64,000 bases of DNA from Solirubrobacterales bacterium (GTDB lineage: Bacteria; Actinomycetota; Thermoleophilia; Solirubrobacterales; 70-9), in NCBI GenBank assembly GCA_036269775.1, contig DATBDU010000035.1, positions 41,961 through 105,960 on the forward strand. Reading direction: 5' to 3'. How positions within the stretch are numbered: the first letter of the stretch is position 1; each line of letters begins with the position of its first letter. This document shows, in pieces, positions 20,053 through 63,690 of this stretch. The notes below the pieces were generated by a model that saw nothing but the letters and a program-made list of their open reading frames with translations, was not told the DNA's origin and did no database searches. The translations under genes were made by a program, and so were the position numbers.

Positions 20053-21918
20053 GTGATCGGGACCTATGCAGCGGTGCTGGCGGTGTGTGTCGCCTCGCTG
20101 GCGATCGGGCAGGCGGCGATCGGGCTCTGCGGCGCCCGGCGCTGGTCGTGGCTCGCGCCGGCGATCGGGCTGGCGTTGCTCTGCGCGGTTTGCTGGGGGA
20201 CGGTGCGGATCGGCGGCGACGGGATCGTCTCGGCGATCGTCGTCGTGGCGCTCACGGTTGCCTCGGTCGCCTATCTCCGGGGGCGGCTGGAGGGTGGGGC
20301 GGAGGCGCTGCGCGCCGGCTGGCCGGTCGCCCTGGTCGCGCTGCTCGCCGCCTCGCTCCCCTTTGCGGTCGAAGGCCACTTCGGGATCCTCGGCACCAGC
20401 TTCAACCCCGACATGTCCCAGCACCTGCTGGCGGCGAACCGCCTGGCCCACGGCCAGGGCTCCCAGCTCCTTCACCAGGGCTACCCCCTCGGTCCCCACG
20501 CCGTGGTCGTCGCCCTCGACAAGGGTCTCGGCATCGGCCTGGTCCAGGGCTTCAGCGGCCTGACCGTCGCCGTCGCGGTGCTGGCGCCGCTCACGGCGCT
20601 CGCCGCCTTCTCGAACCTTCGCCCGATCCCCCGCACGGCCGGAGCCCTCGTGGTCGGCCTCGCCTACGTCGTCGCCTCCTACTTCGCCCAGGGCGCCTTC
20701 AAGGAGACGATCGAGGCACTCATAGTCCTCGCCTTCGCCCTCGCCCTCAGAGAGTCCACCCGCACCTGGCGCGACCTCCCCCTCCGCTTCGTCCCCGCCG
20801 CCCTCCTCGCCGCAGGCGCCGTCTACGTCTACAGCTTCCCCGGCCTGATCTGGCTAATCGGCACCGCCGCCATCTGGGCTCTCCTGGAACTCGCCATCAG
20901 CCGGATGCGCCTGGAGGCGGGAGCCGTGGGGAGGGGGTCCGAGAACGGAGCCAGTTTGCCCCGCCCGCAGGACCCCCTCCCCACGGCTCCCCTCGCCTGG
21001 CCTCCCGTCCTTCTGGCGTCCCTCACCTTCGCCGTCCTGATCGCCCCCGAGATCGGCCGCATGCTGGACTTCCACAGCTTCGAGACCTTCGACCCCAACG
21101 GCCCCGGCCTCGGCAACCTCTTCGGCCAGGTCTCGCCCTTCGAGGCCCTGGGGATCTGGCCCTCCGGCGACTTCCGCCTGGCCCCGGGCGACGGTGCGGT
21201 GCCCGCGGCCGGCTATTACCTCGGTGCCGCCTTCGCCCTCGTCCTGCTGCTCTACGGCGTCGGCCGCAGCTGGCGCCGCCGCGAGTCGGCGGTCCTCGCC
21301 GGCCTGGCCGCCGCGGTGGTGGCTTACGCCGCGGCCCGCGTGGGGGGCACGCCCTACACCGCCGCCAAGGCAATCGAGGTGGGTGCTCCCCTGGTAAGCC
21401 TCGCCATCCTGCTGCCGCTGCTCGACCGGCCGTGCTGGCGGCTTGACCAGCATGCGGCCGAGAGGAGCGCCAACGAACCGCTCCCCGCCCTGGCCGCCGC
21501 GGCCTTCGTCCTCGCCGCCGGCGTCTGCGCGCTGCTGGCGCTCGCCAACGCCCCGGTCGGTCCCCCGTCGTACTCACCCGCCCTGACCGGCCTGCGCCCG
21601 CTGGTGGCCTCCGGGTCGACGCTTGTGATCGCCTCCGACGAGCTGCTCGCCGACCAGCACGGCGTCCCTTACATCTCCTGGGAGCTGCGCGGCGGCCGTG
21701 TTTGCATCTCCTCCGAAAGCGAAGTAGGGGACAGGCCACCTGATGGGGTGCGCTTCGCGATTACCCGCGGCGCGGCCGACCAGCCTCCGTTCCCTGGACT
21801 GCGGGTACGTCGCGTGGCTGTGCCCTATGTCCTCTGGGAATCGACCCGCCCCGTCCACGGTCAGAGCCCATGCCCCCTGATCGCCGTGCGCCAGGCACGC
21901 CAGGGGACCGCCCATTGA
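20053..21918 (+). CDS. Polytopic integral membrane protein with a C-terminal soluble domain
   Basis: 621 aa with many hydrophobic helices. It diverges from the AraC gene with only 26 bp between the starts. Function not recognised. Confidence 0.65.
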   Translation: MIGTYAAVLAVCVASLAIGQAAIGLCGARRWSWLAPAIGLALLCAVCWGTVRIGGDGIVSAIVVVALTVASVAYLRGRLEGGAEALRAGWPVALVALLAASLPFAVEGHFGILGTSFNPDMSQHLLAANRLAHGQGSQLLHQGYPLGPHAVVVALDKGLGIGLVQGFSGLTVAVAVLAPLTALAAFSNLRPIPRTAGALVVGLAYVVASYFAQGAFKETIEALIVLAFALALRESTRTWRDLPLRFVPAALLAAGAVYVYSFPGLIWLIGTAAIWALLELAISRMRLEAGAVGRGSENGASLPRPQDPLPTAPLAWPPVLLASLTFAVLIAPEIGRMLDFHSFETFDPNGPGLGNLFGQVSPFEALGIWPSGDFRLAPGDGAVPAAGYYLGAAFALVLLLYGVGRSWRRRESAVLAGLAAAVVAYAAARVGGTPYTAAKAIEVGAPLVSLAILLPLLDRPCWRLDQHAAERSANEPLPALAAAAFVLAAGVCALLALANAPVGPPSYSPALTGLRPLVASGSTLVIASDELLADQHGVPYISWELRGGRVCISSESEVGDRPPDGVRFAITRGAADQPPFPGLRVRRVAVPYVLWESTRPVHGQSPCPLIAVRQARQGTAH

Positions 21919-21929
21919 GGTGTTGACGG

Positions 21930-21976
21930 ACGAACGATGCCTTTGTCATGCCTGAGATGACAAAGGCATCGTTCGT
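21930..21976 (+). other. Perfect 20-bp inverted repeat (7-nt loop) between the membrane-protein gene and thrS
   Basis: ACGAACGATGCCTTTGTCAT gcctgag ATGACAAAGGCATCGTTCGT. No T-tract follows. Its composition is AT-richer than the surroundings. Confidence 0.8.
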
Positions 21977-22045
21977 GGTCCCGCGTCTTCGGAGACCGAA
22001 GCGCTGGGGACACGCGACTTATCTTGCACGTATCTTGCATGCAGG

Positions 22046-24130: not shown

Positions 24131-24763
24131 GTGCCGGTCCCGCGTAGGTTCGATCGGCGCCCACCAGAGCGCGACACCACTCGGATCAACGAGCGCATCC
24201 GCGTACCGCAGGTGCGCCTGATCGGCGCCGACGGCGAGCAGCTCGGCATCGTCGAGATCAACGACGCCCTCAAACGCGCCCAGGACGCCGACCTTGACCT
24301 GGTCGAGGTCGCCGCCGGCTCGAAACCGCCGGTGACCCGCCTGCTCGACTACTCGAAGTACAAGTACGAGCAGGAGCAGAAGCTCAAGCAGGCGCGCAAG
24401 CACCAGCAGCAGGTCAACATCCGCGAAATCAAGCTGCGGCCGAAGATCGCGACGCATGACTACGAGACCAAGAAGGGCCACGTCGAGCGCTTTCTCAAGC
24501 ACCACGACAAGGTCAAGGTCACGATCATGTTCCGCGGCCGCGAGCAGGCCCACCCGGAGCGGGGCAGGGCGCTGCTGCAGAAACTCTTCGAGGACCTCGG
24601 CGGCATCGCCGTGATCGAGTCCGCGCCGCTGCAGGAAGGCCGCAACATGAGCATGCTGCTGGCGCCGAGCAAAGAGGTCGACAAGCTGGACGGGGCGGCG
24701 CCGGAGGGCGAGGCTCCGGCCGAGGCCGCGCCGGCCGACGACTCACCTGCCACTGAGTCCTGA
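24131..24763 (+). CDS. infC: Translation initiation factor IF-3
   Basis: [23 protein letters not shown]...[27 protein letters not shown]. The start is assigned to GTG 24131, but infC genes often use atypical starts, so the 5' end is uncertain. Confidence 0.88.
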
Positions 24764-24878
24764 GCGTCTATCCCGGTAGGGGTTTCGCTTAACTTTTTCG
24801 AGGGTCGTCTGCCTGCTGTCGCGCGCAACCGCAGTGGCGAAAAAGTGCAAGACGCTTCACCCCTACCGGGATAGACGC
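24764..24878 (+). repeat. Copy 1 of a nested-palindromic intergenic repeat of about 115 bp
   Basis: It fills the whole infC/wecB convergent spacer. The outer 19-bp arms GCGTCTATCCCGGTAGGGG / CCCCTACCGGGATAGACGC are perfectly complementary. The inner modules are shared with 39643-39759 and 39925-40041. Confidence 0.85.
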
Positions 24879-25954
24879 TAAGCGCGGGCGGCGATGATGT
24901 CGGCGATTCGCTCCGACGCCTTGCCGTCCCAGAGGCGCGGCGGCGCGGAGGGTGCGTCACTGCGAGCGGCGAGGGCGGCTGGGATGGTTGCGATCGCGGC
25001 TGGGTCGAGGCCGAGGAGGGTGTTGGTGCCGGCGCTGACCGTGACCGGCCGCTCGGTGTTGTCGCGCAGGGTGAAACAGGGGATGCCGAGGTAGGTCGTC
25101 TCCTCCTGGATGCCGCCGGAGTCGGTCAGCACGGCGCCGGCGTCGGCCAGCAGCGAGAGGAAATTGAGATAGCCAAGGGGCATGGTCAACAGCAGCCCTT
25201 TATGTATGACGTTGAAGCTCTCCATCATCTTCTCGGTGCGCGGGTGGACGGGGAAGACCACCGGCATCTCTTCGGCCAGCGCCGCCAGTTGTCGCACCGT
25301 CTGCTCGAGAAGCGGGCCGTCGACCAGGGCCGGCCGGTGCAGGGTTACGAGCGCGTAAGAGCCGGGCTCGACCCCTAGTTTGGCGGCCATGCCGGCCGCC
25401 CGGAAGCGATCCTCGAGCGCGACCAGGGTGTCGATCATCGTGTTGCCGACCATCTGCATGCGCTCGTCCGGGATGCCTTCGGCGCGCAGGTTGTCGATGG
25501 CCTCGTCGCTGTGCAGGAAGAGCAGCTCCGAGAAGCGGTCGGCGACGATCCGGTTGACCTCCTCCGGCATCGTCAGGTCGAAGCTGCGCAGTCCGGACTC
25601 GATGTGGGCGACGGGAATCCCCATCTTGACCGCGGTGAGAACCGCCGCCAGGGTCGAGTTGACGTCGCCGGGGACGACCATCAGGTCGGGGGACTCCTCG
25701 ATCAGGACCGGCTCCAGGCGCTCCATCGTGCGGGCGGTCATCGTCGCGTGGCTGCCGGAGCCGACCTCGAGCATGTGGTCGGGCGCGGGTACGCCCAGCT
25801 CCTCGAGGAAGACCTCCGACATCAGCCGGTCGTAGTGCTGGCCGGTGTGGACGATCGCGTGCCTGGCCTCGGGCAGCCGTGCCCGCAGCGCCCCGATTAC
25901 AGGCGCCGTCTTGACGAAGTTCGGCCGGGTCCCGACCACGTAGACAATCCGCAT
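24878..25954 (-). CDS. wecB: UDP-N-acetylglucosamine 2-epimerase (non-hydrolysing)
   Basis: [19 protein letters not shown]...HTGQHYD...[27 protein letters not shown] start at ATG 25954; the track's 469-aa version has an Arg/Ser-rich extension. Confidence 0.88.
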
Positions 25955-34802: not shown

Positions 34803-35999
34803 ATGACCTTGGGCCTCAAAGGCACCCAGTCGCTGGAGGAGCGCTACCTGATGCGGACCTACCGGCGCGGGCAGGTCGACTTCGTCCGCGGCGAGGGGCC
34901 GCTGCTCTGGGACGCCGACGGTAAGGAGTACCTCGACTTCCTGACCGGGATCTCGGTCTGCTCGCTGGGCCATTGCCACCCGGCCGTGGTGGCGGCGGTC
35001 CAGGAGCAAACGGGGCGGCTGATGCACGTCTCCAACCTCTTCTACACCGAGCCGATGGCGCGCCTGGCGGAGCGGCTCTCGGAGTCGAGCCTGGGCGGCC
35101 GTGTCTTCTTCGCCAACTCCGGCACCGAGGCGATCGAGTGCGCGATCAAGGTCGCCCGCAAGCATGCCCACGGGCGCGGGATCGAGGCGCCGGAGATCGT
35201 CAGCTTTGAGGGCGACTTCCACGGCCGCAGCTACGGCGCCCTCTCCGCCACCCCCGGCCTGGCCCGCAACGCGGCGCTGGGGCCGATGCTGCCGGGCTTC
35301 CGCGCCGTGCCCCGCAACGACGCCGCGGCGCTGCGCGAGGCGGTCGGCGAGCGCACGGCGGCCGTTCTGCTGGAGCCGATCCAGGGCGAGGCCGGCATCC
35401 GGCCGATCTCCGACGAGGCCCTGCTCGCCGCCCGCCAGGCCTGCGACGAGACCGGCGCTCTGCTGATTTTCGACGAGATCCAGACCGGGATGGGCAGGAC
35501 CGGGTCGCTCTGGGCCTACGAGCAGACCCCGGTGCGGCCCGACGTCCTGACCAGCGCCAAGGCGCTCGGCGGCGGCGTCCCGATCGGCGCCTGCATCACC
35601 GGCCGGGCCGCCGCCGACGTGCTCGAGCCCGGCGACCACGGCTCGACCTTCGCCGGTGGTCCCGTCGCCACCGCGGCGGCGCTGGCGGTGCTGGACGTGA
35701 TCGACGACCCGGCCCTGCTGCGGCGGGTGCGGGAGCTGGGCGCCGAACTGCGCGACGGCCTCGCGGCCCTCGACGGGGTCGCCGAGCTGCGCGGACGCGG
35801 CCTGATGGTCGGCGTCGGCCTCGCGGAGGGGATCGACGCTCAGGCGGTCGGCGCCGACCTGCTGGGACGCGGGCTGGTCGTCAACGTCCCGGCGCCGGCG
35901 ACGCTGCGCCTGCTGCCGCCGCTGCTCATCGATGGCTCGCACGTCGAACGCGCCGTCGGCTTGATCGGCGACGCCCTGGCGGCCACGCGTCTGCAATAA
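34803..35999 (+). CDS. argD: Acetylornithine aminotransferase
   Basis: Class-III aminotransferase: FFANSGTEAIECAIKVAR, LIFDEIQTGMGRTG and the PLP-Lys region DVLTSAKALGGG. Confidence 0.9.
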   Translation: MTLGLKGTQSLEERYLMRTYRRGQVDFVRGEGPLLWDADGKEYLDFLTGISVCSLGHCHPAVVAAVQEQTGRLMHVSNLFYTEPMARLAERLSESSLGGRVFFANSGTEAIECAIKVARKHAHGRGIEAPEIVSFEGDFHGRSYGALSATPGLARNAALGPMLPGFRAVPRNDAAALREAVGERTAAVLLEPIQGEAGIRPISDEALLAARQACDETGALLIFDEIQTGMGRTGSLWAYEQTPVRPDVLTSAKALGGGVPIGACITGRAAADVLEPGDHGSTFAGGPVATAAALAVLDVIDDPALLRRVRELGAELRDGLAALDGVAELRGRGLMVGVGLAEGIDAQAVGADLLGRGLVVNVPAPATLRLLPPLLIDGSHVERAVGLIGDALAATRLQ

Positions 36000-36061
36000 C
36001 CGGCGCATAGCGCCGGTAAATGCAGACGCGTCGTTGGATCGGCATCTAGGCTTGTCAACTT

Positions 36062-38605: not shown

Positions 38606-39643
38606 GTGGTGCCGGCTCGCGCCAGAAAGGATCTCCTTGCCCTCGGCGCCGCCGCGGCGCTGCTCTGCGCCCTGATCACGGTCGTTCTGGGGGTCGCTCC
38701 GCGCGCCCTGGCTGCCGACGCGGGCTCGCTCGAAGCGAAGCTGGTGAGTGCCCGCGACGAAGCCGGCTCGATCGCCTCCGGCCTGCGCGCCAGCCACGAA
38801 CGGCTCGCCGTCGCCGAAGGCGAAGCGGCCGCCGCCGCGGCCCGCGAGGAACGCCTCTCCGGCCTGCTCGCTGAAGGCCAGGAGCGGGCCGCGGCGCTGA
38901 GCCGCAAGTTGAGCCTGACCCGCAAGCGGCTGGCGGCCGAGAAGGCCCGCCTGCGCCGTTCCCGCCAGGCCCTCGCCGCCCGCCTGGTGGCGATCTACGA
39001 GAGCGGCACTCCGAGCAGCGCCAGCCTCATCTTCGGCTCCGGCGACTACCAGGAGCTGGTCACCCGGGCCGACTACCTGCGGGCGATCGAGGAATCCGAC
39101 AGCGCCCTGGCCGACCGTGTCGAACAGGTCCGCGACGACGTCCGCCGGGAGGCCAAGCTGGTCGCCGCGCTGCAGGCCCGCGCCGTCGCCTACAACGAGC
39201 GTCTCGCCGCCGCCCGCTCCCAGATCGCCGCGGTGCGCGAAGCGGCTCAGGCCGCCGCCGCCCACCAGCAGGCGATCAGCGCTGAACGCGAAGCCTCCCT
39301 GGCCGACCTGAAAACGAGCATCGGCACCTGGGTCAAGGAGATCCAGGCCGCCCGCGCCGCCGAAGCGCGGGCGGCGAGCCGGGCCGAAGCCGAAGAAGAA
39401 GTCGGCCGCTGGCTCGGCGGCCCCTACTCGATCCCCACCTACATCGTGATGTGCGAGTCCGGCGGCGACTACGGCGCCGTCAATCCCTCCAGCGGCGCCG
39501 GCGGCGCCTACCAGGTGCTGCCCTCGACCTGGGAACTCTACGGCGGTTCCGGGGAGCCCCAAAACGCCCCCAAGGCCGAACAGGACCGCATCGCCGGTGA
39601 AATCTGGGCGGACTCGGGTGGCAGTGCCTGGGTCTGTGCGTAG
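38606..39643 (+). CDS. Secreted coiled-coil protein with a C-terminal Rpf-like transglycosylase domain
   Basis: Signal/TM segment LALGAAAALLCALITVVLGVAPRALA, a long Ala/Arg/Glu coiled coil, then YIVMCESGGDYGAVNPSSGAGGAYQVLPSTWELYGG...AEQDRIAGEIWADSGGSAWVCA (transglycosylase-like fold). Confidence 0.75.
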   Translation: MVPARARKDLLALGAAAALLCALITVVLGVAPRALAADAGSLEAKLVSARDEAGSIASGLRASHERLAVAEGEAAAAAAREERLSGLLAEGQERAAALSRKLSLTRKRLAAEKARLRRSRQALAARLVAIYESGTPSSASLIFGSGDYQELVTRADYLRAIEESDSALADRVEQVRDDVRREAKLVAALQARAVAYNERLAAARSQIAAVREAAQAAAAHQQAISAEREASLADLKTSIGTWVKEIQAARAAEARAASRAEAEEEVGRWLGGPYSIPTYIVMCESGGDYGAVNPSSGAGGAYQVLPSTWELYGGSGEPQNAPKAEQDRIAGEIWADSGGSAWVCA

Positions 39644-39759
39644 GCCGGGGCTCCGGGTAGGGGTTCCGCTTAACTTTTTTGAGAATCGGCAAGTGCCACT
39701 CGAGATTGCCAGCCGGCAAAAAAGTGCAAGACGCTCCACCCCTACCCGGAGCCCCGGCC
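39643..39759 (+). repeat. Copy 2 of the nested-palindromic repeat
   Basis: Outer arms GGCCGGGGCTCCGGGTAGGGG / CCCCTACCCGGAGCCCCGGCC (21 bp, perfect). Inner modules GGTAGGGGTTCCGCTTAACTTTTTTGAG ... GCAAAAAAGTGCAAGACGCTCCACCCCTACC. It starts at the last base of the upstream stop codon. Confidence 0.85.
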
Positions 39760-39924
39760 TAGGTCCGAGCCCGGCGATTTTCACAGAGCTGCGAGCTTGG
39801 TCGTCAGCCTTGGGTAGAGCAGCTTCCGAGCGAAGTCGTCGCGAAGATCCCGCGCCTCGAATCGCTGGCAGCGCGCTCTCTTGCTGGGCACGTCCCTCGA
39901 CCTCGGAGCAGATCCCGCGCCTGA

Positions 39925-40041
39925 GCCGAAGGACCTGGGTAGGGGTGAAGCGTCTTGCACTTTTTTGCCGGCGAGGTCTCTCGAGCGGCCGCTGGCGCTT
40001 CTCAAAAAAGTTAAGCGAAACCCCTACCCAGGTCCTTCGGC
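39925..40041 (-). repeat. Copy 3 of the nested-palindromic repeat (inverted orientation)
   Basis: Outer arms GCCGAAGGACCTGGGTAGGGG / CCCCTACCCAGGTCCTTCGGC (21 bp, perfect). The reverse complement carries the same inner modules as copies 1 and 2. Confidence 0.85.
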
Positions 40042-40133: not shown

Positions 40134-43100
40134 ATGAGCACTCCCTCCGCCGTCCATCTGCACGCCCACAGCGAGTACTCGCTGCTCGATGGCGCCTGCA
40201 AGATCGACGCGATGGCGGCGCGGGCGGCGGAGCTGGGGCAGCCGGCGCTGGGGCTGACCGACCACGGCGTCATGAACGGCGCCGTCGACCTCTATAAGGC
40301 CTGCGCCAAGCATGGGATCAAGCCGATCGTCGGCCTGGAGGCCTATTTCGTCGAGGATCGCAAGACGATCAAGGAACAGCCCCGCTACGAGCGCAACCAC
40401 ATCACCCTGCTGGCCGAAAGCGACCGTGGTTACGCCAACCTGGTCCAGCTGACCTCCGCCGGTTTCCTCGAGGGCTTCTCGCGCGGCAAGGCGAACGTCG
40501 ACATGGAGCTGCTGGAGCGCCACTCCGAGGGCGTCATCGTCCTCACCGGCTGCCTGCAGTCGCGCTTTTGCCGGCGCCTGGTCGAAGAGCGCGCCGACGA
40601 CGCTCGCGCCCACCTCGACGACCTGATCCAGGCCTTCGGCCCCGACCAGGTCTACTTCGAGGTGCAGAAGAACGGGATCGACGATCAGGACAAGGCGAAC
40701 GCGGGGATCGTCCGCTTCGCCCGCGAGCTGAAGCGGCCGCTGGTCGCCACCGCCGACGTCCACTACCTGCGGCGCGAGGACTTCGACAACCACGCGGCGC
40801 TGCTCTGCGTGCAGACGAAGTCGACGCTGGAAGCGCCGAAGATGAGCTTCGACACCAACGAGTTCTACATAAAAAGCTCCGAGGAAATGAGCGAGTCCTT
40901 CGCCGAGTGGCCGGAAGCGGTTCCGAACTCGCTGGAGATCGCCGAGCGCTGCTCGCTGAACATCGAGCTGGGCAGCCTGCTGCTGCCGCGCTACCCGACC
41001 GAGGACGGTTCCGAGCCGGAGCAGATGCTGCGCCGAATCGCCGGCGAGGGGCTGCGGGCCCGCTACGGCGACCCGCCGCCCGCCGAGGCGGTCGAGCGGA
41101 TGGAGTTCGAGCTCGGCGTAATCGAGGAGATGGGTTTCTCCTCCTACTTCCTGATCGTCTGGGATTTCGTCCGCTACGCCAAGGAAAACGGCGTTGCCGT
41201 CGGCCCGGGCCGTGGCTCCGCCGCAGGCTCGATCGTCTCCTACGTGCTCAGGATCACCGATCTCGATCCCCTCTCGGAGGGGTTGATCTTCGAGCGCTTC
41301 CTCAATCCCGGCCGCAAATCGATGCCGGATATCGACATCGACTTCTCGGTCCGCGGCCGCGAGCGGATGATCCGCTACGTCGGCGAGAAATACGGCCGCG
41401 AATCGGTCGCCCAGATCATCACCTTCGGCAAGATGGCGCCGCGCGCCGCGACCCGCGACGCCGCCCGTGTGCTCGGCTTCGACTACGCCACCGGCGACCG
41501 CCTCGCCAAGCAGATCCCGGAGCCGATCATGGGCCGCAGCCCGTCCTTCGCGGAATGCCTGAAGTCGGGTCAGGAACTGAAACAGACCTACGACTCCGAG
41601 CCGGACGCGAAGAAAATCATCGACGTCGCCCAGGGGCTCGAGGGGATCGTCCGCAACAACTCGATCCACGCCGCCGCGGTCGTGATCGCCGACCGGCCGC
41701 TGCAGGAGGTGGTGCCGCTGCAGCTCGCCGAGGATCGCAGCGCTCCCGCCACTCCTAACGGCAACGGCTCGGGCAAAGCCGAGCGCCAATACAAGATCGT
41801 CACCCAGTACTCGATGGGGCCGATCGAGGAGATCGGCCTGCTGAAGATGGACTTCCTCGGCCTCCGCAACCTCGACGTGATTGAGGACGCGATCGACATC
41901 ATCCGCCGCTCGCGCGGCGAGGAGATCGAGATGGAGCAGATCCCGATCGACGATGCCAAGACCTACGCGATGCTGGCCAAGGGCGACTCGACCGGGGTCT
42001 TCCAGTTCGAGTCGGAGGGCATGCGCGACGCGCTGCGCAAGGTCAAGCCGACCGAGTTCGCCGACCTGGTCGCGCTCGGCGCCCTCTACCGGCCCGGCGC
42101 GATGGCCTACATCCCCGCCTACGCGAAGGGCAAGAAGGACCCGACCACGGTTCGCTACCCCGATCCGCGGCTGCGCGCGATCACTGAGGAGACCCACGGC
42201 TGCGTCATCTACCAGGAGCAGTTGATGGAGATCTCGCGCTCGATGGCCGGCTTCAGCGGTGCCGAGGCGGACGACCTGCGCAAGGCGATCGGCAAGAAGA
42301 AGCGCGAGCTGATGGCGACGATGAAGGACAAATTCATGCAGGGGCTAGCGGAATCGAATACCGCTCCCAACGTCGCCAAGGACCTCTGGAAGCTCAACGA
42401 AGCGGCCGCCGATTACTCCTTTAACAAGTCCCACGCCGCCTGCTACGGGCTGATCTCCTACCGCACTGCCTACCTCAAGGCCAACTACCCGGCCGAGTAC
42501 ATGGCGGCGGTGATCTCCTCGGTGATGAGCACCAAAGACAAGGTGCCTTTCTTCGTCAACCGCTGCGAGGAGATGGGGATCGAGGTGTTGCCGCCCGACG
42601 TCAACTCCTCCGACCACAGCTTCGTCGTCAACGAGAAGGCGATCCGCTTCGGCCTCGACGCCGTCAAGAACGTCGGCCACTCCGCCGTGGAGGCGATCCT
42701 GCGCGCCCGCGAGGACGCTGAGATCGCCTCGATCTGGGACTTCTGCGAGCGGGTCGACTCCCGCGCCGTCAACAAACGGGCGATCGAATGCCTGATCAAG
42801 TGCGGCGCCCTCGATTCGACCAGGGCCACCCGCAAGGGCATGCTGGAAACCCTACCGGCGGCCCAGTCGGCCGGCCAAAAGGCACAGGAGGACGCGCAGA
42901 TGGGCCAGGGTTCGATCTTCGACTTCGGCGACGACGCCGGCGCGAGCGGCTCCTCCGCGGCTCAAGCGCACCACCGGCCGCCGATCTCCGCCGTCGAGTT
43001 CGACCGCGCCGAGCTGCTCTCGCTGGAGAAGGAGACGCTGGGGACCTATCTGTCCTCGCACCCGCTGGCAGAGGTGCGAGGGGCGCTGCGCGCCCGGGTC

Positions 43101-45501: not shown

Positions 45502-45566
45502 AGAACTTACGGCGGGAGAGCAAGGGCCGGCTAGTCCGGTCCTTGTCGCCTGCTCTGATCTGGGGT

Positions 45567-45611
45567 TGCGGCAGTCCTTTGTACCCCTATGCGTCACAAA
45601 GGACTGCCGCA
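45567..45611. terminator. 16-bp perfect stem-loop between convergent genes (probable bidirectional terminator)
   Basis: TGCGGCAGTCCTTTGT acccctatgcgtc ACAAAGGACTGCCGCA, lying between the acyl-CoA dehydrogenase stop (45501) and the nfo stop (45617). Confidence 0.6.
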
Positions 45612-45616
45612 AGCGC

Positions 45617-60174: not shown

Positions 60175-60229
60175 CGCCGGGACAATAACTGGCTGGGCAG
60201 CCAGTTGCCCGCCGCCTAGAATCCTGCCG

Positions 60230-63570: not shown

Positions 63571-63605
63571 TAAAAACCGCCCCGGGTAGCTAACACCCGG
63601 GGCGG
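63571..63605 (-). terminator. Rho-independent terminator oriented for minus-strand transcription
   Basis: The minus strand reads CCGCCCCGGGT gttagct ACCCGGGGCGG followed by TTTTTA. The plus strand has no T-tract after the stem. Confidence 0.65.
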
Positions 63606-63690
63606 TCTGTGGTCACCACAGAATGACCGCAACTTTAGCGCTGCATTGGCCGAAGCGCATTGCGATGGCCAAATAGAGGCATTCGACACT

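Follow-up and report, generated by a model that had tools for sequence, protein, structure and literature searches.

The window analyzed here, a stretch of 64,000 nucleotides (nt) from contig DATBDU010000035.1 of a Solirubrobacterales bacterium, contains three copies of a palindromic intergenic repeat of about 120 nt. One copy separates infC from a convergent gene, and two form an inverted pair between an Rpf-like gene and dnaE. The three repeats are members of a lineage-specific, previously undescribed family of uncultured, small-genome soil Solirubrobacterales. An earlier note on this DNA, made from its letters alone, had proposed an undescribed structured repeat family with three copies. 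The family is borne out by more than 115 further copies, retrieved by pattern scan and covariance model, and the window copies are confirmed at 24763-24879 (forward), 39641-39761 (forward), and 39925-40041 (inverted). Scoring the covariance model at every position of the window yields these three copies, while the remaining matches are plain hairpins. According to Pfam, the neighboring genes encode IF3 (infC), a convergent UDP-GlcNAc 2-epimerase, an Rpf-type transglycosylase, and DnaE.

Copy 1 (24763-24879, forward strand; 118.6 bits) occupies the convergent spacer from stop to stop, as the note had described: the infC stop codon lies at 24761-24763 and the epimerase stop codon, CTA on the forward strand, at 24878-24880. 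Its 5′ arm AGCGTCTATCCCGGTAGGGGT (24763-24783) forms 21 Watson-Crick pairs with the 3′ arm (24859-24879), the last two bases of which, 24878-24879, are shared with the epimerase stop codon. Enclosed by the arms on the same strand are core module A TTCGCTTAACTTTTTCG (24784-24800), a variable apical region with a class II-like GCTGTCGCG motif (24801-24837), and core module B CGAAAAAGTGCAAGACGCTTC (24838-24858). Copy 2 (39641-39761, forward strand; 106.3 bits) likewise begins at a stop codon, as the note had it: its 24-bp outer stem opens with the TAG stop codon of the Rpf-like transglycosylase gene, so that the stop codon (39641-39643) lies inside the stem. A non-coding spacer of 163 bases (39762-39924) leads to copy 3 (39925-40041, reverse strand; 105.3 bits), the outer stem of which is 22 bp long. 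Copy 3 faces away from any incoming gene, and 92 bases separate its end from the downstream start of dnaE at 40134. The complementary outer arms of copies 1, 2, and 3 are perfect over 21, 24, and 22 bp, slightly longer than first noted because they include the stop-codon bases. Each copy folds with a z-score of -7.1 to -9.5, and none of 200 dinucleotide-preserving shuffles is equally stable.

Anatomy and conservation of the repeat

Alignment of 115 copies shows that each copy is one long hairpin, composed of an outer stem, a near-invariant asymmetric core, and a variable tip of 30-40 nt. The outer stem measures 19-23 bp in 104 of 119 copies, irrespective of whether the spacer is convergent, tandem, or divergent. 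Its sequence is free: all four Watson-Crick pair types occur at most positions, and all 21 pairs change on both sides. Nevertheless, pairing is almost perfect, with 2369 Watson-Crick pairs, 8 G-T pairs, and 25 mismatches among 2402 outer-stem pairs (98.6% Watson-Crick). The earlier note had called the outer arms copy-specific, which holds for their variable sequence; at the same time, a residual consensus of about (A)GAGGCCATCCCGGTAGGGGT runs through them and fades outward. Some subfamilies carry wholly different arms, e.g., CGGGAGGGGTTGGGGTGCCCCT, and in these GGTAGGGG is replaced by unrelated paired sequence. Thus, GGTAGGGG and CCCCTACC, which the note had taken for conserved modules, are not family-wide and belong to the variable covarying stem.

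The core reads YYCRCTTAACTTTTTYG on one side and CRAAAAAGTGCAAGACGYTYC on the other and is asymmetric. Folded as RNA or single-stranded DNA, the hairpin continues inward from the outer stem through a 3x3 internal loop (UYC/UYC) and two pairs to a 3-nt bulge, beyond which two A-U pairs and a 1x2 loop precede the 9-bp A/U-rich helix that carries the tip. A K-turn at the bulge was ruled out by inspection, as no G-A/A-G pairs follow it. The core pair R28:Y103 covaries, with G-C in 74 copies, A-T in 35, and G-T in none, and the register proposed by RNAalifold was corrected on this basis. The covariation of an inner helix that the note had seen between the window copies is real and family-wide; it concerns the last two pairs of the 9-bp helix (C-G 72, U-A 25, G-C 15). 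In the refined structure, 97.5% of the cells are paired compared with 73.6% in shuffles, and the covariation score of 0.602 (0.147 in shuffles) is reached by none of 500 shuffles. Slid registers leave only 41-57% paired. Altogether, covariation is seen in 24 of 34 pairs.

The centre, which the note had described as variable, is indeed the variable tip of the hairpin, yet a motif of one of two classes is present there, resembling either GCCGTCCGAG or GCTGNCGCC. Both motif classes are found within the same genomes. The tip is weakly structured, and RNAalifold run on the alignments yields no consensus structure for this region.

The core, by contrast with the tip, hardly varies. CTTAACTTTTT is invariant in the 115 copies, and the covariance model gave about 111 strong matches in the 746 kb of related loci searched. 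The exact 22-nt pattern is retained in about 106 of these, and the five others each depart from it by one to a few substitutions. Related loci from other genomes, designated by L-numbers, served for comparison with the window. At the Rpf-dnaE locus, the copies were reached via homologues of the Rpf-like protein and hence independently of the search pattern. Between the window, L120, and L124, the core modules of these copies are 88-100% identical (most 93-100%), compared with 53-72% for the tip and 63-75% for the spacer. Core conservation is therefore not an artefact of the search pattern.

Core variants exist as well. One genome holds both GTGCAAG and GTACAAG cores, and both members of the inverted pair in L120 (3539-3660 and 3815-3935) carry the rare variant AAAAAAGTACAAGACG with GTACAAG in place of GTGCAAG. 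Window copies 2 and 3 both have CTCGAG where TCCGAG is usual. Such sharing within inverted pairs, as judged from the sequences, suggests exchange between the pair members. Concerted evolution across the genome, or a co-evolving factor, was rejected, since both tip classes occur in the same genomes and both GTGCAAG and GTACAAG in one genome. Tip identity between copies of the same genome (0.671) hardly differs from that between orthologues (0.684).

Host range, position, and orientation

The pattern scan combined TTAACTTTTT and AAAAAGTGCAAG across a gap of 25-55, covered one genome per species, and returned at least 116 matching stretches. Copy numbers per genome and host range are accordingly lower bounds among the matches listed. 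The further copies come from at least 37 genomes of Solirubrobacterales/Thermoleophilia. All G+C-rich matches listed belong to Solirubrobacterales, Conexibacteraceae, or Thermoleophilia metagenome-assembled genomes (MAGs), one of which holds at least 18 loci, and the few A+T-rich matches are chance matches rather than members. Complete chromosomes that carry the family measure 2.6-3.1 Mb. The repeat is absent from the viral contigs scanned and from plasmids searched by BLAST, and no carrier was found there. In Rfam 15, neither the whole window nor six related loci give a match at the gathering threshold at the elements; matches at permissive E-values (miRNA precursors, telomerase RNA) are spurious hits of long-hairpin models far below threshold. 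A literature search by taxon, repeat topic, and literal core sequence returned nothing relevant to the family.

Copies sit at gene ends, and stop codons fall mostly within a few bases of the stem base. After orthologues had been merged, 75 independent loci were available for context counts, all of which are approximate. Twenty-two of these loci are convergent and 6 divergent, while in tandem spacers 19 copies are co-oriented with the genes and 5 anti-oriented (p = 0.007). Moreover, loci where a gene end adjoins the A side of the element alone outnumber those where it adjoins the B side alone by 29 to 10 (p = 0.003). Replication direction was considered as the cause of orientation and rejected: GC skew, a weak proxy, gave no signal, with 16 of 33 positive in convergent spacers.

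Open reading frames (ORFs) were viewed from stop to stop at 24131-24763 in the window and at several related loci; at some loci they extend into the element, where the internal TAG of GGTAGGGG or the TAA within CTTAAC terminates them. The 3′ ends assigned by automatic gene callers near the elements may thus be wrong, or the stop codons may be provided by the elements.

Inheritance, empty sites, and evolution of the arms

Many copies lie at orthologous positions in different genomes. Seventy-five of 124 copies share a flanking-gene homologue on the same side with a copy in another genome, and many pairs share both flanks. Copy 1 has orthologues between the same two genes in L089, L090, L101, and L104, where IF3 is 90-96% and the epimerase 74-85% identical. 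Orthologues of copy 2 occur in L073, L120, and L124. Copy 3 is found, inverted and upstream of dnaE, in L009, L032, L034, L120, and L124 and is absent in L073. The spacer at 39762-39924 keeps its length in relatives (145-171 nt; 167 nt in the window when measured between 21-nt arm windows), whereas its sequence is only 63-75% identical to L124 and L120, about the rate of unconstrained DNA. It holds no called gene, and no conserved reading frame was seen for a small ORF. The spacer contains two AGATCCCGCGCCT boxes and the string CTTGGTCGTCAGC, the latter also found in repeated cargo of other genomes; homology to that cargo was not accepted, as only a 13-nt string is common to both and the match is not significant by BLAST.

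The Rpf-dnaE locus allows filled and empty states to be compared. The window, L120, and L124 hold two inverted copies around a 166-171-nt spacer, L073 holds one copy, and L118, L119, L121, L122/123, and L127 are empty, with a total spacer of 110-122 nt. A neighbor-joining tree groups the empty genomes in a single clade, nested among lineages that hold copies. In L121, the empty site GCCGGAGCTCC-TG-CCCGAGACCTCCGGC equals two outermost arms, the left one of copy 2 and the right one of copy 3, joined together. The empty state would be explained most simply by one deletion that removed the entire inverted block. Elsewhere, L014 has overlapping stop codons and no hairpin where L061 and L109 hold a copy, L040 has no matching hairpin and a spacer homologous to the left arm of L106, and L020 has only a 5-6-bp stem. 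In the window itself, a site at about 60194-60208 has no copy, only a short AACTGGCTGG...CCAGCCAGTT hairpin followed by the upstream region of the next gene; the orthologous site in a different genome, L045, carries a full copy and about 70 extra bases.

These sites bear on the reading, offered in the earlier note, of an active miniature inverted-repeat transposable element (MITE) that is bounded by GGTAGGGG...CCCCTACC and inserts into the loops of terminator hairpins, so that the outer arms would be old terminator stems. In its favor, a family of many copies must once have spread, related genomes differ in presence and absence, and in one MAG near-identical copies, together with an adjacent repeated segment, lie downstream of different genes. 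The plain long-stem hairpins of the window are possible targets, and the short stems at the empty sites of L121 (GCCGGAG/CTCCGGC) and L020 partly match arm ends. However, insertion into pre-existing hairpins predicts intact hairpins at empty sites, and none that matches the arms is found in L014, L040, L118, L119, or at 60.2 kb of the window. Insertion into varied hairpins would also predict varied stem lengths instead of 19-23 bp in any context. The arm consensus decays gradually, without a sharp boundary between element and target, and the outermost 8-10 positions reach only 41-65% consensus, though the inverted ends are perfect in every copy; in a MITE, the terminal repeats are the binding site of the transposase and hence alike among copies. 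Flanking direct repeats of at least 2 bases occur in 4 of 118 copies, compared with about 10.5 expected from shuffled partners, and thus no target-site duplication exceeds chance. Further, many copies hold orthologous positions across genomes, their arms differ between orthologues and so evolve in place, GGTAGGGG is replaced in other subfamilies, and the single nested clade of empty Rpf-dnaE genomes fits a deletion. No transposase turned up in the few flanks inspected, which were not scanned systematically. Some mobility, past or rare, is nevertheless likely, because the family must have spread and because of the near-identical copies in one MAG.

How the arms change in place is seen among orthologous copies of the Rpf-dnaE locus. 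Between genomes, the number of differing positions is always equal for the left and the right arm (19/21 and 19/21, 17/21 and 17/21, 14/21 and 14/21), and the stems remain perfect. In a tally of the stem columns from the pair table, G-U/U-G (about 34) and A-C/C-A (about 33) are equally rare; hence wobble has been tolerated no more on the sense than on the antisense strand. Although the covariation is genuine, it looks from the sequences like a DNA-level or two-stranded rather than a wobble-tolerant phenomenon. Growth of the arms outward until coding sequence blocks them was considered and rejected, as stem length is independent of context.

The same arm behavior appears in an unrelated hairpin of the window at 20917-20993, apparently a single-locus structured element with a 22-bp perfect stem GGGAGCCGTGGGGAGGGGGTCC and the interior GAGAACGGAGCC...CCCGCCCGCAG. 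The interior GAGAACGGA...CCCGCCCGCAG recurs in its orthologues in L104 and L089, but the arms, about 20 bp long, are different there; their complementarity is complete in L089 and almost complete in L104. Perfect, fast-evolving arms are thus a property of hairpins in this lineage and not of the repeat family alone. Four plain hairpins at 21926-21980, 35983-36033, 45564-45614, and 63576-63606 have perfect stems of 11-20 bp, short loops, and no clear U-tract; they look like the ordinary gene-end hairpin form of this genome.

Intrastrand template switching and mismatch correction in folded hairpins are known for quasipalindromes. We infer that one of these DNA-level processes keeps the arms perfect, as a strictly Watson-Crick pattern would not be expected from wobble-tolerant selection on RNA; selection on both strands could contribute. 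If the arms are corrected in this way, the core asymmetry has been kept despite such correction, which argues that the asymmetry itself is selected.

Competing explanations and related systems

The explanation we favor, with confidence and doubt in about equal measure, is that of a palindromic repeat of the ERIC/REP/TRIT type, dispersed long ago and by now largely fixed at the 3′ ends of genes, which combines a selected core, a 3′-end hairpin, and arm-templated correction. The family would have spread in the past as a dispersed repeat, and its copies would now be inherited mostly vertically at fixed places, at or overlapping stop codons, with occasional loss by deletion. Purifying selection would hold the asymmetric core near-invariant as the recognition site of a putative trans-acting factor, most likely a protein that reads the bulged hairpin. 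The element would be co-transcribed, mostly in sense, with the gene that runs into it, and the resulting 3′-end hairpin may end, insulate, or stabilize the incoming transcript. The arms would be kept perfect chiefly by templated correction, whereby a change in one arm is copied onto the other.

Several points weigh against this explanation. No U-tract follows the main hairpins in a terminator scan, so that they are not canonical intrinsic terminators; the single match of the scan is an alternative fold of the left arm of copy 2, and the sequence 3′ of the arms is not T-rich. A simple 3′-end role does not explain the 6 divergent loci among the 75 or copy 3, which faces away from incoming genes. 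The genes behind the context counts were called by a simple ORF picker based on G+C content at third codon positions (GC3), and no candidate binding protein has been identified. In addition, the absence of wobble could reflect a function of the DNA instead of correction.

This last point leads to the most serious rival, which we regard as unlikely on balance but worth keeping in view: the elements may act as DNA, so that a DNA enzyme or an architectural protein would bind or cleave the hairpin or cruciform with its bulged core. By analogy with REP/REPIN, a RAYT-like HUH/Y1 enzyme would be a candidate; attC would suggest a recombinase that recognizes extrahelical bases, and BIMEs would suggest gyrase/IHF. 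The gene-end position would merely be where insertions are tolerated. Strictly Watson-Crick pairing, with G-T as rare as C-A, is in line with such a function, as is the switch of R28:Y103 from G-C to A-T with zero G-T. So are the asymmetry kept in the core while the rest is perfectly palindromic, the fixed arm length of about two helical turns, the loss of the inverted pair with its spacer as one deletion unit, and the GTACAAG variant common to both L120 copies. In contrast, the orientation bias relative to the incoming gene (19 versus 5; 29 versus 10), without a link to GC skew (16/33), points to the transcribed strand. Moreover, no HUH, transposase, or recombinase gene was seen beside any copy, with no systematic search made, and the conserved GTAG head or termini of REP elements are lacking.

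A purely RNA-level family, i.e., a cis-regulatory element of the 3′ untranslated region (UTR) or a small RNA with stems kept by compensatory selection alone, is less probable still, and we consider it improbable overall. The earlier note had suggested a structured 3′ UTR or terminator RNA, and the part of this suggestion that stands is the overwhelming covariation, in 24 of 34 pairs, together with the orientation bias toward the incoming gene. Conserved unpaired core nucleotides and the tip motifs likewise suggest specific recognition. The part that does not stand concerns wobble and termination: G-U is no commoner than C-A on the sense strand and the stems are 98.6% Watson-Crick, which is unusual for RNA-selected helices, and the U-tract is missing. 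Perfect arms that evolve together are also seen in unrelated hairpins of the lineage, the family has copies in either orientation as well as in divergent spacers, and no Rfam family is similar.

Very unlikely, in our estimate, is a scheme in which the core is the recognition module of a putative hairpin-reading enzyme that writes or maintains the arm of about 21 bp by copying one flank, inverted, onto the other. It would explain the fixed arm length, the lack of wobble, the lock-step change of the arms, and the homology of the L106 left arm to the single-copy spacer at the empty site of L040; if true, it would be a previously undescribed way to create or renew perfect palindromes of arbitrary sequence at gene ends. 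The active MITE of the earlier note scarcely merits belief, given the fixed arm length, the shared arm consensus, the lack of target-site duplication, and the nature of the empty sites set out above.

For the old repeat, largely fixed at gene ends, that we favor, the closest analogue is the Tuberculosis Rho-independent terminator motif (TRIT) of Mycobacterium, a palindromic, largely bidirectional, genus-restricted family of 147 copies conserved in sequence and structure (PMC3152330). TRIT elements occupy a narrow range of positions overlapping the stop codon, and a factor binding their conserved double-stranded motif was proposed (Gardner et al, 2011; PMC3152330). Both families are lineage-restricted, multi-copy, and palindromic, lie at gene ends overlapping stop codons, and have a proposed binding factor. 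They differ in host and sequence, and here the conserved part is an asymmetric interior, the outer stem is free in sequence, the orientation is biased, and a tip of 30-40 nt is present. The likeness, drawn from the published description and with Solirubrobacterales as the host, is one of analogy and not of membership.

Other palindromic repeats resemble the family in part. The ERIC/IRU elements of Enterobacteria are imperfect palindromes of about 126 bp with a conserved central inverted repeat and an unproven mobile origin. They share with our repeats the size, extragenic location, long hairpin, conserved centre, and co-transcription (the latter presumed here), but they are conserved along most of their length including the termini, lack perfect arms of constant length and free sequence, and show no tie to stop codons. 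REP/REPIN sequences of 20-40 nt have a conserved GTAG head and a stem sequence conserved within a genome, and the associated RAYT is an IS200/IS605-like Y1 enzyme. REP, BIME, and REPIN are similarly palindromic, occur at gene 3′ ends and in convergent spacers, are mostly vertical at fixed sites, and form inverted doublets, which make longer hairpins, and imperfect bulged hairpins read by a protein, as presumed here. In contrast to the conserved REP head, however, the termini vary here and conservation is found in the interior. Each unit measures about 120 nt, GTAG lies inside the stem in about half of the copies (T 51%, A 70%), and stems vary within a genome. In Neisseria, the Correia elements (CREE/NEMIS) have terminal repeats that are conserved, duplicate a TA target, and are clearly polymorphic in their insertions. 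Correia elements and MITEs are alike in length (100-155 bp), long terminal inverted repeats, variable centre, proximity to genes, and hairpin transcripts, which our repeats would presumably also form. They differ in that the repeats described here have no duplication beyond chance, no conserved termini, and mostly orthologous sites.

A canonical intrinsic terminator would also place a stable G+C-rich hairpin directly 3′ of a stop codon, often between convergent genes. The repeat has no U-tract of 7-9 nt, its T and A runs pair inside the hairpin, and with a stem of about 21 bp and a structured interior of 75 nt it is far larger than a terminator hairpin. Integron attC sites, variable palindromes that end in conserved R''/R' core sites (RYYYAAC ... 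GTTRRRY) and form cassette arrays beside intI, were considered and set aside: the conserved part of the repeat is internal and its ends are variable, GCTTAAC lacks a GTTAAGC partner in the same copy, and copies are scattered among housekeeping genes rather than arranged in arrays. The family is thus an interspersed palindromic intergenic repeat that belongs to no named family.

A well-defined structured repeat family is hereby added from a poorly studied, uncultured actinobacterial lineage. The alignment of 115 sequences and the working covariance model are usable for Rfam submission or for MAG annotation, where gene callers without such a model may extend ORFs into the elements. The layout reverses that of usual interspersed repeats: invariance lies in the interior, whereas the termini vary freely in sequence yet pair perfectly over a fixed length. 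With this layout, the family is a natural system for studying whether templated correction or selection preserves the perfection of long bacterial palindromes. Possibly, it joins TRIT as a second case in which a sequence-specific hairpin, read by a putative factor, marks the gene ends of a lineage; such a case bears on how transcripts end in high-G+C Actinobacteria without U-tract terminators.

A repeated non-coding segment of 300-450 nt is attached to the element, or to a relative of it, in two other genomes (L057, reverse strand, about 1100-2030, with L001, L031, L072, L108, and L111; L095, 200-800). The composite of element and segment is multi-copy in one MAG and has no Rfam match. The segment itself contains tandem units of about 37 nt (…CCGGACCCTTGGTCGTC…TCTCTAGAGAT…) and a strong internal hairpin. 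At its far end, visible in L057 and L095, a second hairpin family closes the segment, with GCGTTAATTTTTCG ... CGAAAAATCCAGCGAG enclosed by G-rich arms of about 20-22 bp.

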